The position numbers were made by a program, and so were the translations under genes. A stretch of 64,000 nucleotides of DNA from Bdellovibrionota bacterium. GTDB lineage: Bacteria; Bdellovibrionota_C; UBA2361; OMII01. The stretch's first letter is position 1; each line of letters begins with the position of its first letter. The DNA lies in NCBI GenBank assembly GCA_044360075.1, contig JBIKLA010000011.1, positions 26,668 through 90,667 of the forward strand, in the 5' to 3' direction. Shown in pieces: positions 20,970-26,701 of this stretch. The notes beneath the pieces were generated by a model that was not told where the DNA came from, ran no database searches, and saw nothing but the letters and a program-made list of their open reading frames with translations.

Positions 20970-21596
20970 TTGACCAGAGGGCTCCTTATGAACAGCTTGC
21001 GTTGCCTCAGTCGACTAGCCTGCGCCGCGTTATTCGCCATCTTCTGCGGGTCGCTCCCAGCAGCGGCAGAGGACATCAATGAGGTGTTCAAAAAAGTTAA
21101 CGAGTACGTTCAGCAGAAGAACTACCCGAAGGCGATGGAGGAGCTGCAGTGGGCACAGAAGGAGCTTGAAAAGCTTAACCAGCAGCGGCTCTCAGATTTG
21201 CTTCCCAAGACGATAGAGGGTTTCGTCGGCGAGGAGACTGAGGTCCAGTCGGCTATGGGATTCACCTCAATCGAGCGCCAGTACAACAAGGGCGATCAGG
21301 GAATTCACCTCTCAATCACAGGCGCCGGGTCAGCCGGCGGAGGTCTTGCCGGACTGGCAAAGATGGGGATGATGATGGAAGGCTCCCAGAGTGGCAAGGA
21401 CCAGTTCCGGGTCGACGGGCGCACCGCGAGCCTCGAGACCTCAGGCGCTCCTGAGCTGACGGTTTTCCTTGAGAGCGGCTCGATGCTTCAGCTGCGCTCA
21501 AGTGATGAGTCGGTCGATAGCGCAACGCTCAAAAAGTTCGCGCAGGGTCTCAAAATCGGCGAGCTCGATGATTACCTGAAGGGCTCAAAGGGCTAG
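20970..21596 (+). CDS. secreted hypothetical protein (Sec signal peptide)
   Basis: Predicted signal peptide LSRLACAALFAIFCGSLPAAAEDI. The N-terminal half is helical; the C-terminal half is Gly/Met-rich. Confidence 0.5.
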   Translation: MTRGLLMNSLRCLSRLACAALFAIFCGSLPAAAEDINEVFKKVNEYVQQKNYPKAMEELQWAQKELEKLNQQRLSDLLPKTIEGFVGEETEVQSAMGFTSIERQYNKGDQGIHLSITGAGSAGGGLAGLAKMGMMMEGSQSGKDQFRVDGRTASLETSGAPELTVFLESGSMLQLRSSDESVDSATLKKFAQGLKIGELDDYLKGSKG

Positions 21597-21662
21597 AGCG
21601 GCCCGAACGCACAAAAACCGTTTGGAGCAGCCGCGGGGGTGGTGTACCGTTAGGGGCCCTGT

Positions 21663-22664
21663 ATGGACACCTCACCGGCCCATCAACACCTTGCTTCCTC
21701 GGTAGCTATCGTCGCTCCACACGGCAATCTGCCCCCGGACTGGGCGGTTGCGATGGCATCGCCCCAGGAAACAGCAGCATTTTCAGTGTCTCGCCACACG
21801 GAGCAGCCACTGGAGGAGCCGCACCTGGCCCACCTGTCGATGCCACCATGCCCGGAGTCTCCGAACGACGCATTCGCTGCCGTTTTTGGCACGGCGCTTG
21901 GGCAGGCCAGTGACGAGGAGCTCAAGTCGCTCGCTGATATTGTGGAACGCCTGCGTGACGTGAGCAGCCTTCCATCGGCCCTCGGCTCCCGGCTCGATGC
22001 TGAAAGCGAACCCGAGATAGAGATGCTGCTGGGGCCCTTGGTTGAGGCGGAGGACGGCGTTCGGGCGACCTGGATAGAGGTTAACAACGTCACCACAGGC
22101 GAATCGATCTGTCCGGATATTCCCTGGCTCATCGACAAGCCGCCCCCAAAGGTTTTCCAGGAGCGTGATGTGCCGCCATGCGAGCGCTTTCACGGCGGCA
22201 CCGTGCGGCTGTTGGTTGAGCTGGGTCCACTCGGAAGCGGCGACCTCGCCGTTATTCCTTGGGTGTCACCGGAGTGCCAAGAGGAGGCTCTTAGTCATTT
22301 TATACTCTCGGTCCGGACCGCCGGTTCCTTGGGCCCATCGTACCTCCATTCCGCGGTGCTGAGCGCCCTCTGCAGTGAGCTCGCCGAAGACGATATAATC
22401 CCCGAAACCACCTCGCTCTCAAAGCTCTACGAGGAGGTGGGTCTCTCCTTGGCCTCCCTAAGCCAATCGAGCGACGGGGAGGTTTCCTTTGAACTTCATT
22501 TCACAGGTGCAGGGGATATAAGCGCCAGCCTCTTGGCATCAGGCTTTGCAGGTTTCTCGGCTCGGTTCGGGATAGGAGATCGTGGCGACTTCAACCTACT
22601 TGATATCATCCTCCACCGTCTGAGCCCTTGGATGAACCAACCCGAAGGCCCATCTTCGAGCTAG
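21663..22664 (+). CDS. hypothetical protein (333 aa, acidic)
   Basis: Long ORF with consistent codon usage; no recognisable motif. Confidence 0.45.
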   Translation: MDTSPAHQHLASSVAIVAPHGNLPPDWAVAMASPQETAAFSVSRHTEQPLEEPHLAHLSMPPCPESPNDAFAAVFGTALGQASDEELKSLADIVERLRDVSSLPSALGSRLDAESEPEIEMLLGPLVEAEDGVRATWIEVNNVTTGESICPDIPWLIDKPPPKVFQERDVPPCERFHGGTVRLLVELGPLGSGDLAVIPWVSPECQEEALSHFILSVRTAGSLGPSYLHSAVLSALCSELAEDDIIPETTSLSKLYEEVGLSLASLSQSSDGEVSFELHFTGAGDISASLLASGFAGFSARFGIGDRGDFNLLDIILHRLSPWMNQPEGPSSS

Positions 22665-24153: not shown

Positions 24154-24334
24154 GCGGGGGCATGAGCGGCCTCAGTGGAAGGGGCGTGCCGGCTCCGGTA
24201 GCTTCATGCTGGAGGCTTGCGGCTGCCCAGGCCTGAAGCGTTAATAGATCGAATCTGATCTCTCGACGACGGCTCCGGTTCAAGACAGCAAAATTTCTTT
24301 TCCCGGCGCGGGAAACGCGCTAGGAAGGGGTCCG

Positions 24335-26701
24335 ATGTTTAACTCCAACACGCCAGAGGAGCAGCCCGACCGCTCCTTCCAACCACAAGATCTCAGACCC
24401 CCTCGGCGTCCTTCGCCGATTGAGCCTCCGGCCGTGAAGCGACTCTGTGACCGGATACTAGAACGCGGAGATTCCCTCATTAGCAGCGCTCTCCACGAGG
24501 CGCGCTCTCAAGGCCCGCTCTCTGAAGAGCAGTTCACCTCCCTCGCTCGTACCTGCTCCGACCTCCGCTCTCTCAAGCAGCTCGCAGCTGCGCTTGAGTC
24601 GATGGTAAATGATGGAGTGGACAAGCATTTCGCACTTTGCATGCCGACTCTGGCGCACGTCACAAAGGGACTGCTTACGTTCACCGGCGATAACCCCGGC
24701 GAGGCTAAGATGGCCTCGCACCGCCTCACCTCTCTCGTGCTCGCCATTATGAATGCTCGGGATGACTTTCACTCGACTCTCATCTCAGGCCTCGATGAAA
24801 CGGCGGCTGCAGACCTAGCCCATGCGGTCAATGAGGGTGACCCGACGGACAAGGCGTACTGGAGCTGCCTTGAGCTGCAAACCGTGAGCCGCCCTACTAT
24901 GGAGAATCTCCAGCGCATGTTCGACGCCCATGCGTGCGTGCGCGACAACCTTCCAGAAGAGAGCCTGCCATCCGAGGCTCTCCTGCGCGTTGTGCGCACT
25001 CTCGGCGAGCGTGAGTTCGCTCCTGTGTTTAACCTCGTGGTCGCTGAGTATCGCAGCTGCTCTGAGAAGCCGATCAAAATGGCCTACGACCTCGACATGA
25101 TGGAGTATGCCGTGTCCGGGCTGGCCTATGCCGCGCTCCCGCACATCGATGAGTTCATCGGGATCTTCAAGGCGGCAGAGGGCGACGAGTTCAATGTCGC
25201 GACTCGCGTCACCCTTGCCATCGCCAAGGGCCTCGACCACGATCCGGAGGACGAGGCTATCATCGCCCTCAGGGATGCTGTGTTTGACATCATCGACGAC
25301 CTCGATACGCAGGGAGCACACGCTGCCGCGCCCCGGGCGGCCCTGGCCCACCAGGCCCTCGCATCTCTGGCGGCAACTCCCGACGACGTGGCGCTTGTGC
25401 AGTCCTTCGCCGACCGCGCTCTTGAGAGCGAGCCGTCAGAGGCCCTTATCGGCCTGCTTGAGGAGCTCGCCGAGGCCTACGAAGATGTCTTCAACAATGA
25501 GGCGCTTGAGCCGCTGGAGCCTGTTCCGCCGCCCTCCGACGTCGATACGCTGCGTCCGGTCATCGAGGAGCGCTGCGCGCAGTCAAGCAGCCATGTTCAT
25601 TCCCTCTCAGGAGCGGGGCTTAACGCCTACCTGGCGTCGATGGCGGCCGAGCTGGCCGAGCTGCGCAACCCCCGCGAGGTGAAGCAGTACGCCAGCGATA
25701 TCGCCGCAACAGTTCTGGCAAGCGAGATCACAAGCCGTGATCCGGACGAGAGGAGCGTCTTCGTGAAGTTCTCAGAAGCGCGAGCCTTCGCCAAACGGTA
25801 CCACTACATGTGCCTGGGCTCCCTTCCCACAGCGGCGGCAGCCCTCCTGCCGGAGGCTTTGGGCATCCTGCGCGGATCCGAGGAGCAGGACATTAAGGCT
25901 TCTAGAATCGCCGCCAAAACCTACGAGAATCTGTGCAAGGCCCTGACCCACTTGGCCGTGTCGATAAACGAGAGCGAGGAGCTGCGAAGGATAGCTTTAT
26001 CCCGGCTCTCGGAATCGGACTGGAGCCTTCTGCGCTCGCTCCACGAAAGCGAACAGCACGACTTCTGGTCCGCGAGCGACTATGCCGCTTTGGCTGGCCT
26101 TAGCCTTAGGGCAGCTCTTGAGGCGGATGAGTCATGGCATGAGGACCTCATCAAGACCGTCTCGGGCGAGAACGTAGTAGGCGGACTCTTCGTGACGCCG
26201 TGCCTCATCGGAGAGTACAGGCGCCGAGACTCGTCCTGGGACTTGATAGCGAAGGTGAACCTGAGGACGGATGATGACGAGGTTATGTGGCCCTGTGCTG
26301 CCGGAGCCTCCCTGCGCCTCCCCGATGGTTACCAGAGGATATTCTCGCTGCTGAGCGCCTCCGCCTCCGATGACATCGCCAAGGGATTTCTTCTCGTGCA
26401 GTCACTTCGCTTTGATCTATCAGAGGAGCAGCTCGCAGAGTGCCGAAGGCTCGTGTCGCTCTACCTCGATGAGCCGGGACAACTGGGGGTTGATGCCCTC
26501 GTTACGTACGGGTGCGTTGCCGATGAAGCCGATTGCGCGCGGGAGATAAACAAGCTCCATAAGCCAGCTGGCACCGAGGCCGCATTCTTCTACGCAACAC
26601 GCGCCCTGGCGGCCGCACGGGCGCTACGAAACGTGATTGTGCCGGCTCATGTGCGCGAGCAGGAGGGCCGCTCGCGCTTCTGGCAGCGCGACAGCTACTA
26701 G
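24335..26701 (+). CDS. large acidic alpha-helical hypothetical protein (788 aa)
   Basis: Leu/Ala/Glu-rich composition with no TM segment or catalytic motif. Divergently transcribed from the 480-aa ORF. Confidence 0.5.
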   Translation: MFNSNTPEEQPDRSFQPQDLRPPRRPSPIEPPAVKRLCDRILERGDSLISSALHEARSQGPLSEEQFTSLARTCSDLRSLKQLAAALESMVNDGVDKHFALCMPTLAHVTKGLLTFTGDNPGEAKMASHRLTSLVLAIMNARDDFHSTLISGLDETAAADLAHAVNEGDPTDKAYWSCLELQTVSRPTMENLQRMFDAHACVRDNLPEESLPSEALLRVVRTLGEREFAPVFNLVVAEYRSCSEKPIKMAYDLDMMEYAVSGLAYAALPHIDEFIGIFKAAEGDEFNVATRVTLAIAKGLDHDPEDEAIIALRDAVFDIIDDLDTQGAHAAAPRAALAHQALASLAATPDDVALVQSFADRALESEPSEALIGLLEELAEAYEDVFNNEALEPLEPVPPPSDVDTLRPVIEERCAQSSSHVHSLSGAGLNAYLASMAAELAELRNPREVKQYASDIAATVLASEITSRDPDERSVFVKFSEARAFAKRYHYMCLGSLPTAAAALLPEALGILRGSEEQDIKASRIAAKTYENLCKALTHLAVSINESEELRRIALSRLSESDWSLLRSLHESEQHDFWSASDYAALAGLSLRAALEADESWHEDLIKTVSGENVVGGLFVTPCLIGEYRRRDSSWDLIAKVNLRTDDDEVMWPCAAGASLRLPDGYQRIFSLLSASASDDIAKGFLLVQSLRFDLSEEQLAECRRLVSLYLDEPGQLGVDALVTYGCVADEADCAREINKLHKPAGTEAAFFYATRALAAARALRNVIVPAHVREQEGRSRFWQRDSY

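Follow-up and report, generated by a model that had tools for sequence, protein, structure and literature searches.

[quoted passage not shown] They lie in a 64-kb window of a contig from an uncultured, freshwater Bdellovibrionota bacterium, the window being the whole stretch of DNA analysed. The best overall explanation combines this mosaic structure with a role for two of the four products, B333 and D788, as cargo or clients of the T3SS-like machine, and we assign it a rough probability of 0.5. The original prediction treated all four proteins as candidate substrates or regulators of the T3SS; this does not hold, as C453 is widespread beyond T3SS-bearing genomes and A208 is predicted to be exported by the Sec pathway.

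Table 1. Features of the block and its surroundings, with positions in the window.
Feature	Position	Strand	Length	Description
T3SS-like operon	12017–20188	+		Context of the block, outside the flagged block
82-aa protein	20207–20455	+	82 aa	Overlaps start of TPR gene
TPR protein	20455–20889	+	144 aa	TPR_19, 3.1e-8 (Pfam)
A208, as first listed	20970–21596	+	208 aa
A208, corrected	20988–21596	+	~202 aa	Mature part ~175 aa
B333	21663–22664	+	333 aa	Last gene on the T3SS-operon strand
C453, as first listed	22711–24153	−	480 aa
C453, corrected	22711–24072	−	453 aa	Very large family without a name
Intergenic region and D788 5′ leader	24073–24334	+		Two blocks conserved among D788 orthologues
D788	24335–26701	+	788 aa	Variable slot between C453 and E113
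E113–sigma pair	26748–27916	−		Conserved in all relatives
E113	26748–27089	−	113 aa	Basic
Sigma factor	27119–27916	−	265 aa	Weakly FliA/WhiG-like

All four ORFs (4/4) were recovered in the ORF listing of the window, and orthologues exist for each. Two starts were revised. A208 probably begins at the ATG at 20988, which has GAGGG 8 nt upstream and matches the 202 aa given by gene callers in strain variant L036. C453 most likely starts at M28 (24072), and database protein P0001 matches the resulting sequence at 100% identity. Relative to strain variants with 96.6%–99.7% nucleotide identity to the window, dN/dS was 0.14–0.19 for A208, 0.28 for B333, 0–0.13 for C453, and 0.18–0.20 for D788, and values below 0.3 indicate functional genes. 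All four are real genes, and chance ORFs are excluded. No Pfam or NCBIfam family exceeded its threshold for any of the four, and PADLOC, PHROGs, and PDB sequences gave no match. The genes are thus unannotatable by standard libraries and adjoin the secretion operon, as originally described. Computed pI values were 5.2 (A208), 4.4 (B333), 5.8 (C453), and 4.8 (D788), and a segment scan found zero transmembrane (TM)-like segments in B333, C453, and D788. The earlier characterization of acidic, TM-free, helical proteins applies to only two members of the block: B333 and D788 are acidic and TM-free, and D788 is helical.

The neighboring operon is predicted to encode T3SS-type proteins. Its content comprises an SctD-like double-FHA protein, a second FHA protein, an SctJ lipoprotein, small proteins of 74 and ~120 aa, SctQ, a DUF3313 lipoprotein, SctR, SctS, and two four-TM ORFs (Pfam E-values: FHA 1.8e-32, YscJ_FliF 2.7e-11, FliMN_C 9.6e-17, DUF3313 4.3e-14, FliP 2.5e-23, and Bac_export_3 5.1e-9). 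The last two ORFs (19012–19590 and 19592–20188) have four TM-like segments each and no family match; by position and TM-like segments, they are possibly SctT and the N-terminus of SctU. SctV, SctN, SctC/secretin, and needle genes were not recognizable anywhere in the 64-kb window, and the clusters of relatives L029 and L039 lack SctRSTU, being reduced to SctD/J/Q plus the chaperone, so the export competence of the cluster itself is putative.

Every relative, the deepest ones included, keeps the 82-aa and TPR genes at 58%–75% identity, and their sequences suggest that they likely form a substrate/chaperone pair akin to SctX/SctY or to class II chaperones. As in SctX/SctY (YscX/YscY) and class II TPR pairs, a small TPR protein lies beside candidate clients at the end of an sct operon. 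However, the NCBIfam matches of the TPR protein to SctY (2.4e-5) and LcrH/SycD (6e-4) are both far under curated cut-offs (24.8 versus 70 bits). Additionally, the translationally overlapping partner of the TPR gene is the upstream 82-aa gene and not B333. Because of this overlap, the 82-aa gene is more likely the cognate partner, which weakens the argument from chaperone adjacency for B333. B333 also differs from translocators in having no TM segment.

Comparison of relatives by tblastn synteny revealed a clade-wide order: the T3SS-like operon ending in the 82-aa protein and TPR chaperone, a first slot on the same strand (A208 and B333), C453 on the opposite strand, a second slot (D788), and then E113 and the sigma factor on the C453 strand. 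The same order was found in L001, L003, L004, L028, L029, L039–41, L042, and strain variants L035–37, and the loci closest to C453 are from Bdellovibrionota metagenome-assembled genomes (MAGs). The backbone and the slots differ in conservation. Between the window and L039, identity was 49% for SctJ, 52% for SctQ, 62% for the TPR protein, 65% for C453, 67% for E113, and 82% for the sigma factor, versus 24% for B333 and 22% for D788. Overall, B333 and D788, although under purifying selection, change two to three times as fast as the neighboring genes (22%–35% versus 49%–88% identity), the structural sct genes included. Both are missing from several relatives and have been lost repeatedly.

A208 is predicted to be a Sec-exported periplasmic protein. 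Its signal peptide has a positively charged n-region and a hydrophobic core, with a cleavage site of AAA|ED that corresponds to AHA|ED in the L028 orthologue and ASA|ED in that of L001; an N-terminal helix is followed by a Gly/Met-rich stretch. A cleavable Sec signal with an AxA site implies action in the periplasm or envelope, and this signal, which orthologues share, is incompatible with the original proposal of a type III substrate. The gene is 57%–66% identical in L001, L002, L004, L028, and L042, absent in L003, L029, and L039 by synteny comparison, and has only sub-threshold Pfam matches. A208 may be a periplasmic accessory that the apparatus can do without.

C453 is ubiquitous, strongly constrained, and enzyme-like, and merely sits between the two slots. 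Its family has at least 8000 clusters; 7997 of 8000 scored candidates had E ≤ 1e-3, and none carried a Pfam domain. It spans at least six phyla, including Actinomycetota, Bacteroidota, and Chloroflexota, with homologues of 36%–45% identity in Verrucomicrobiota, Chloroflexota, Acidobacteriota, Bacteroidota, and Bacteriovoracaceae MAGs, plus a Marmoricola match. In the contexts inspected elsewhere, neighbors were unrelated and not conserved. An alignment of 27 sequences had 73 invariant columns. In the AlphaFold2 model (pLDDT 82.7, pTM 0.82), ~180 positions are predicted to adopt a fold like that of the CinA C-terminal domain/PncC (NMN deamidase), superposing on 5vu3, 2a9s, and 6l19; Foldseek matched the CinA-superfamily structures 5vu3 and 2a9s at E 2.6e-4 and TM-scores of 0.64–0.67 normalized to the target. 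The likeness is one of predicted fold, however, with only 10%–14% identity and roughly 270 further residues modelled in other alpha/beta domains. C453 has no Pfam CinA match and no PDB sequence match even with a 27-sequence profile. Its occurrence in phyla and genomes without a T3SS rules out the suggested substrate or regulator role for this 450–480-aa protein, and C453 is unrelated to type III secretion.

B333, in contrast to C453, belongs to a family with only three clusters among 5.8 billion proteins, which by sequence search appears confined to a single clade of uncultured freshwater Bdellovibrionota. The N-terminal ~60 aa are polar and variable and precede an ESPNDAFAA motif, and the aligned core conserves W137, E139, E174-R175-F176, P199-W200, C205, E208, and R218. 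Syntenic homologues occupy the same slot in L001 (35% identity), L042 (38%), L029 (31%), and L039 (24%); none was found in L002, L003, L004, or L028. B333 is co-directional with the sct operon, 17–66 bp downstream of the preceding operon gene, and directly follows the TPR chaperone gene in L029 and L039. Against strain variants, it has the highest dN in the region. Sequence scans found no signal peptide or TM segment, and there was no Pfam or PDB match.

D788 (13.8% Ala, 12.2% Leu, 8.8% Glu) is predicted to be an acidic, all-alpha ARM/HEAT-like solenoid. Its AlphaFold2 model is almost wholly helical (39 helices, pLDDT 68.6), and the N-terminal ~30 aa are disordered and rich in Pro, Ser, and Gln; sequence scans detected neither a signal peptide nor a TM segment. 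A word-indexed search gave three clusters, and an exhaustive profile search gave 22 representatives among 1.84 billion proteins, with nearly all full-length ones at 763–788 aa. This family, too, appears restricted to the same clade. Syntenic homologues share 43% (L023), 40% (L028), 24.5% (L025), and 22% (L029 and L039) identity. Alpha-solenoid (ARM/HEAT-like) type III effectors include Xanthomonas XopN and the Ralstonia SKWP/RipS family. D788 resembles these in being large, acidic, repeat-like, free of signal and TM segments, disordered at the N-terminus, and located beside a T3SS-like locus. Unlike them, it has no sequence similarity to any known family, and Foldseek returned only generic ARM/HEAT solenoids with TM-scores of at most 0.25.

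The genomic position of D788 is variable. It adjoins C453 or the T3SS cluster in the window, L023, L024, L028, L029, and L039–41, lies beside flagellin in L025/26, and lies between a binding protein and Lon in L027. In L001–L005, D788 is absent from the C453/E113 junction, and C453 directly follows the E113–sigma pair in the same direction. This absence in five relatives, together with another gene separating C453 and D788 in two deeper lineages and the placement of D788 between unrelated genes in one contig, contradicts the original proposal that the divergent 480- and 788-aa genes are a co-regulated pair. Alignment of the D788 leaders of the window, L023, L024, L027, and L028 identified two conserved blocks. 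The first, AG(A/T)(T/C)CG(A/G)AT(C/T)TG, lies at about −90; the second consists of a small hairpin and, after it, AAAACG(C)G(C)TA, at −25 to −14. Both are kept in L027 despite its different gene context, and neither recurs in front of the T3SS operon or any other gene in the window.

We propose that B333 and D788 are dispensable cargo or clients of the T3SS-like machine, which would be made in the cytoplasm, recognized by N-termini that are variable and disordered, and employed when the bacterium interacts with prey or host. For B333 taken singly, this assignment is tentative, and for D788 it is doubtful. Cargo or accessory roles are plausible for each at a similarly low level, and restriction to the clade that has this T3SS-like cluster, a usual position beside the cluster, and fast evolution are consistent with them. 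The polar, poorly conserved N-termini of both proteins also support a cargo role, as do their lack of signal peptides and TM segments and the native GC3 of both genes, which matches neighbors. However, the N-termini of distant D788 homologues are 43%–50% charged, unlike typical type III signals, and the T3SS-like loci of L001–L005 manage without D788.

Fast evolution and patchy presence suit any non-essential lineage-specific gene equally. B333 and D788 could be ordinary cytoplasmic proteins of this kind, sitting in two recombination-prone gaps around C453 and unconnected to the T3SS-like machine, although we consider this rather unlikely. Each of the two genes has been lost in several relatives that retain the sct cluster, and the settings of D788 in L025/26 and L027 and the failure of its leader motifs to recur at the sct operon point the same way, counting against cargo. 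Neither protein has an effector-type or toxin-type domain, and dN/dS well below 1 gives no sign of diversifying selection. Yet both families are known from this clade only, and, apart from L027, every contig with sufficient flanking sequence places them no more than a few kb from the sct cluster, even between lineages in which their identity is only 22%–24%. The close, co-directional placement of B333 behind the operon likewise argues for a connection.

Less probable still is that one or both are non-secreted parts of the system, with B333 a cytoplasmic accessory to the structure or assembly of the sorting platform and D788 an alpha-solenoid scaffold or regulator acting with sigma–E113, for instance by holding back or freeing a small secreted protein of anti-sigma type. 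The two deepest lineages, where the cluster is SctD/J/Q plus chaperone, still have B333 at the end of the operon, but it is missing from four other relatives, and structural components normally evolve more slowly. For D788, ARM/HEAT solenoids are typical protein-binding scaffolds, and the gene is convergent with E113–sigma in the window, L023, L025/26, and L028, and close to it in L029 and L039. The sigma factor is weakly FliA-like (Sigma70_r2 6.5e-5 in Pfam; FliA_WhiG 5.7e-8 in NCBIfam, below the curated cut-off), and E113 has the layout of FlgM: it is small, its N-terminal half is disordered, and its C-terminal half is helical. However, E113 has no detectable match to FlgM, other families, or PDB sequences. 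Across all relatives, the sigma factor is 77%–88% and E113 58%–88% identical, and the pair is fully conserved in L001–L005, so this module does not need D788.

The original reading of all four proteins as T3SS substrates (effector, ruler, tip, or translocon) or regulators, including the co-regulated pair, drew on unannotated genes adjoining the sct operon and two acidic, helical products; it is highly improbable given the ubiquity of C453, the Sec signal of A208, the unconserved divergent pair, the absence of ruler, tip, gatekeeper, or translocon family matches (Pfam, NCBIfam), and the TM-free B333 and D788, which speak against a translocon.

The closest described system is the "needleless" T3SS* of Myxococcus xanthus (mxan_2434–2464), for which effectors are postulated but unidentified (PMC12075869, PMC12428579) and which is proposed to handle these effectors (PMC12075869). 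In both cases, basal-body and sorting-platform T3SS-type genes occur in a member of a predatory lineage, without a recognizable secretin, needle, or translocon and with flanking genes of unknown function. Unlike the Myxococcus system, the present cluster belongs to Bdellovibrionota, is much smaller, has no SctV or ATPase SctN in the window, lacks SctRSTU in some sister lineages, and has no kil/Tad genes nearby.

The second slot carries other genes as well in sister lineages: a glycosyltransferase, an extra sigma factor, or a signal-less HExxH protein, the last of 572/652 aa in L029 and L039.

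The four genes at the 3' edge of the type III secretion-like (sct) operon form a mosaic rather than a coherent new system, a conclusion that we consider well supported. All four open reading frames, A208, B333, C453 and D788, are present where the original prediction placed them, with slight corrections to two starts. The corrected start of A208 is preceded by GAGGG, and gene callers give the same 202 aa in a strain variant; C453 read from M28 is 100% identical to a database protein (P0001). Each gene has orthologues, and comparison with three strain variants (L035-L037; 96.6-99.7% nucleotide identity) gave dN/dS values of 0.14-0.19 for A208, 0.28 for B333, 0-0.13 for C453 and 0.18-0.20 for D788; all four are real genes. 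Their first-described properties also held, with pI values of 5.2 (A208), 4.4 (B333), 5.8 (C453) and 4.8 (D788) and no TM-like segment in B333, C453 or D788. Ala, Leu and Glu abound in D788, whose AlphaFold2 model is almost all helix.

Coordinates of the genes and other features discussed, in the window and in related loci (L numbers)
Feature	Locus	Position	Strand	Description
T3SS-like (sct) cluster	window	12017-20889
T3SS-like (sct) cluster	L029	1-5689
T3SS-like (sct) cluster	L039	1-5665
A208 ORF	window	20970-21596	+	start most likely ATG 20988, giving 202 aa
B333	window	21663-22664	+	333 aa
C453 ORF	window	22711-24153	-	start corrected to M28 (24072), giving 453 aa
D788 leader blocks	window	24249-24322	+	conserved; kept among orthologues
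D788	window	24335-26701	+	788 aa
E113-sigma pair	window	26748-27916	-	E113, 113 aa, basic; sigma factor, 265 aa, weakly FliA/WhiG-like
222-aa ORF	window	28061-28729	-	probable shadow ORF
Second sigma-like gene	window	28169-29059	+	296 aa; Sigma70_r4 9e-8, weak r2
Slot 1 orphan ORFs	L003	4678-6537	+	two unrelated ORFs, 224 and 368 aa
HExxH protein	L029	8092-9810	-	572 aa, between C453 and D788
HExxH protein	L039	8007-9965	-	652 aa, between C453 and D788
Flagellin	L025	2-1891	+	Flagellin_N and Flagellin_C; directly upstream of D788 homologue

The four proteins are, as first described, unannotatable. Scans against Pfam, NCBIfam, PADLOC and PHROGs gave no above-threshold match for any of them, nor for E113, a basic protein encoded beyond D788, and PDB searches with single sequences and family profiles (C453, D788, B333 and E113) yielded no significant match. 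Identities as ruler, gatekeeper or tip proteins (SctP, SctW, SctA) found no support: none of the four matched the T3S4/SctP, HrpJ/TyeA or LcrV/IpaD models of Pfam and NCBIfam at E ≤ 0.1, and individual scans of 14 D788-family and six B333-family members, which included these models, gave no match. Translocon proteins (SctE/SctB, such as YopB/YopD and IpaB/IpaC) carry one or two hydrophobic TM helices and no signal peptide. The maximum 19-residue Kyte-Doolittle mean is 1.31 in B333 and 1.44 in D788, with no segment above 1.6, and the sole hydrophobic segment of A208 is a cleavable Sec signal, so this identity found no support either. Within the window, the four genes have no paralogues, and sigma-70 promoter and terminator scans remained at background level. 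In profile-profile comparison, D788 and B333 were unrelated.

C453 is an enzyme-like housekeeping protein. Its relatives are very numerous, with 7997 of 8000 scored candidates significant and none carrying a Pfam domain, which sets a lower bound on family size of at least 8000 clusters at 90% identity across six or more phyla. Proteins 36-45% identical to it come from Verrucomicrobiota, Chloroflexota, Acidobacteriota, Bacteroidota and further Bdellovibrionota, where their neighbours are unrelated; one is named from Marmoricola, and all are recorded as "hypothetical protein". An alignment of 27 sequences contained 73 invariant columns; K17, E33, K56, S59, D62 and H126 are among the residues that never vary. 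In the AlphaFold2 model (pLDDT 82.7, pTM 0.82), about 180 aligned positions share the fold of CinA-C/PncC-type structures at 10-14% identity (Foldseek E 2.6e-4; TM 0.64-0.67, normalised to the target). Since this is fold similarity only, and sequence searches of Pfam and PDB gave no match, we do not file C453 as a CinA/PncC (NMN deamidase) member. Effectors are expected to be restricted to genomes with a secretion system, which C453 clearly is not, and presence in genomes lacking T3SS genes is what the original prediction had itself named as evidence against a role in type III secretion. Whatever the answer for the secretion system, the analysis reveals a protein family of very large size that has neither a Pfam model nor a name, and its size, spread over many phyla and PncC-like domain make C453 a candidate for a family definition of its own.

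A208 is likewise not a type III substrate, since it carries a signal for Sec export. At the N-terminus, a positive n-region and a hydrophobic core precede the cleavage site AAA|ED, and the AxA signal peptide is conserved, with AHA|ED and ASA|ED in orthologues. A208 is encoded on the operon strand and is 57-66% conserved, which would fit an optional accessory in the periplasm.

Comparison of all window proteins with related loci by tblastn, together with gene calls there, shows a clade-wide backbone with two variable slots, which A208, B333 and D788 occupy. The backbone runs from the end of the sct operon (an 82-aa gene and a TPR gene) through slot 1 to C453 on the opposite strand, then through slot 2 to E113, a sigma factor and gidB. 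Slot 1 holds A208 and B333 in the window, L001 and L042, A208 alone in L002, L004 and L028, and B333 alone, directly after the TPR gene, in L029 and L039-41. In L003, orphan ORFs on the opposite strand replace A208 and B333, which confirms slot 1 as a site of gene turnover. Slot 2 is empty in L001-L005 and contains D788 in the window, L023, L024 and L028. D788 is joined there by an HExxH protein and a glycosyltransferase in L029, and by an HExxH protein and an RpoD-like sigma factor in L039-41. The divergent C453-D788 arrangement, first read as a co-regulated pair, is thus an accident of this lineage rather than a conserved unit. The HExxH protein has no signal peptide and a conserved zincin-like HEVxHxIQ motif, and its two copies are 44% identical. 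No Pfam match beyond a sub-threshold Peptidase_Mx was found; it is possibly a toxin or an effector-type metalloprotease.

The window is a chromosomal segment between housekeeping genes (prs, pth, mreB, RNase G, gidB, bamA, lptFG and tyrS) of an uncultured organism known only from MAGs, and the genomes nearest to it come from uncultured Bdellovibrionota; several of these MAGs carry "ME<date>" sample names. Its sct operon encodes a double-FHA SctD-like protein, a second FHA protein, a SctJ-type lipoprotein, two small proteins, SctQ, a DUF3313 lipoprotein, SctR, SctS and two four-TM ORFs with no family match. It ends in the 82-aa gene and the overlapping TPR gene, whose product has weak SctY and LcrH similarity. 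Of the non-flagellar core set tested (SctC, D, J, N, Q, R, S, T, U and V), Pfam supports SctD-like, J, Q, R and S; SctT and SctU are suggested by position and by the four TM-like segments in either ORF. Across the whole 64-kb window, no SctV, SctN, SctC (secretin) or needle gene was recognisable. In the deeper sister lineages L029 and L039, the cluster also lacks SctR, SctS and the two four-TM genes, and the 82-aa and TPR genes come straight after DUF3313. The nearest described system is the needleless T3SS* of Myxococcus xanthus, a recent discovery in a predatory bacterium, which has no secretin, needle or translocon and whose effectors are not yet identified (PMC12075869, PMC12428579). The cluster may be a compact counterpart, that is, a minimal needle-less T3SS-type apparatus in Bdellovibrionota. 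The literature searched described no such machine outside Myxococcota and contained no relevant paper on non-flagellar type III systems of Bdellovibrio or Bdellovibrionota. Such a T3SS*-like machine would be unexpected in this phylum. The two variable slots flank the cluster.

B333 is restricted in distribution and changes faster than any other gene in the region, whatever the depth of comparison. A word-indexed search of 5.8 billion proteins returned three clusters, synteny pointed to additional, more remote homologues (24-38% identical), and a metagenome scan with the family alignment added one locus (L042). Every homologue found adjoins an sct cluster. In the alignment, roughly the first 60 residues are polar and variable, and the short motif ESPNDAFAA and a core region are conserved. 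Between strains, dN is 0.020-0.022; against L039, B333 is 24% identical while its neighbours are 49-82% identical. The S/T/P/N/Q fraction over residues 2-31 is 0.33-0.53 in the B333 family, compared with a background of 0.26 ± 0.10 across 46 window genes.

D788 is similarly divergent and clade-restricted. An exhaustive search with a profile, covering 1.84 billion representatives, recovered 22 members, and almost every full-length one measures 763-788 aa. In lineages whose sigma is 77-82% and whose C453 is 64-65% identical, D788 itself is 22-24.5% identical. The AlphaFold2 model (pLDDT 68.6), built on a shallow alignment, shows an alpha-solenoid whose first 27 or so residues are disordered, and Foldseek returned generic ARM/HEAT solenoids only (TM ≤ 0.25), with no specific family. 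Type III signals are disordered, polar N-terminal stretches, some 20-30 aa long, in which acidic and hydrophobic residues are scarce. Over residues 2-31, the S/T/P/N/Q fraction of the window's D788 is 0.57, against the same background of 0.26 ± 0.10 (46 window genes), but distant homologues have 43-50% charged residues there. Homologues adjoin an sct cluster in six independent contexts. Other or truncated contexts are L027, where the gene lies between a binding protein and Lon, and L025/26, where it follows a flagellin gene and the other side keeps E113, sigma and gidB. In both assemblies with this last arrangement, the contig ends just upstream of the flagellin-D788 pair, and the L025 flagellin has a long central insert of PD40/"SADGRY" beta-propeller-like repeats. 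Recent horizontal transfer of B333 or D788 was rejected, since GC and GC3 match their neighbours, and positive selection was not seen in either gene (dN/dS 0.18-0.28, from small counts).

The D788 leader may also contain a regulatory or translational element. Its first block is TCGAATCTG at about -90, and the second is a small CCCGG…CGGG hairpin followed by AAAACGCGCTA at -25 to -14. Both are kept by orthologues at about 40% protein identity, including L027 with its different genomic context. They have no Rfam match. A promoter motif common to D788 and the sct operon was rejected, since the blocks have no meaningful second copy in the window.

B333 and D788 are the only two of the four that are still viable as T3SS-associated proteins. 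The proposal that the block holds substrates or regulators stands for these two as candidates, fails for C453 and, for A208, points instead to the periplasm. We give B333 a probability of roughly 35% of being a cargo or client of the T3SS-like machine; for D788, the same role is doubtful. Both are restricted to the clade carrying the sct cluster and recur beside it across deep divergence, both lack a cleavable signal peptide, as expected of effectors, and have polar, variable N-termini, both evolve fast and are dispensable, and slot 2 is shared with the signal-less HExxH protein in sister lineages. However, the machine itself looks incomplete, the overlapping 82-aa gene is the likelier partner of the TPR chaperone, distant D788 N-termini are highly charged, D788 is found in other contexts too, and relatives manage without B333 or D788. 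These last two points would also be consistent with the pair having no connection to the machine, an unlikely reading given their repeated placement beside it, under which the block would amount to lineage-specific filler surrounding a housekeeping gene. Across the two proteins, we consider a structural or regulatory role without secretion improbable. On the cargo reading, the slot occupants B333, D788 and the HExxH protein provide a short, concrete candidate list for export from a T3SS*-like machine.

The sigma factor and E113 form an invariant pair in all relatives (77-88% and 58-88% identical, respectively). The N-terminal half of E113 is disordered and K/G/S/V-rich, and the C-terminal half is helical. 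E113 resembles FlgM in size, layout and position beside a weakly FliA-like sigma factor, but not in sequence: eight orthologues searched against Pfam gave no FlgM match (E ≤ 10) and a PDB profile search gave zero matches (E ≤ 10), so E113 was rejected as a FlgM anti-sigma-28. The sigma factor had no PDB match at E ≤ 0.01. A highly speculative extension of the cargo reading is that B333, D788 and the signal-less HExxH protein make up the cargo of an undescribed minimal needle-less T3SS-like predation or host-interaction apparatus of freshwater Bdellovibrionota, with sigma and E113 coupling its activity to gene expression in a FlgM-like manner. If true, they would give T3SS*-type machines their first candidate substrates. 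Beyond sigma lie the second sigma-like gene and then gidB; the gene callers of relatives choose this plus-strand gene over the overlapping minus-strand ORF, which is probably a shadow ORF.
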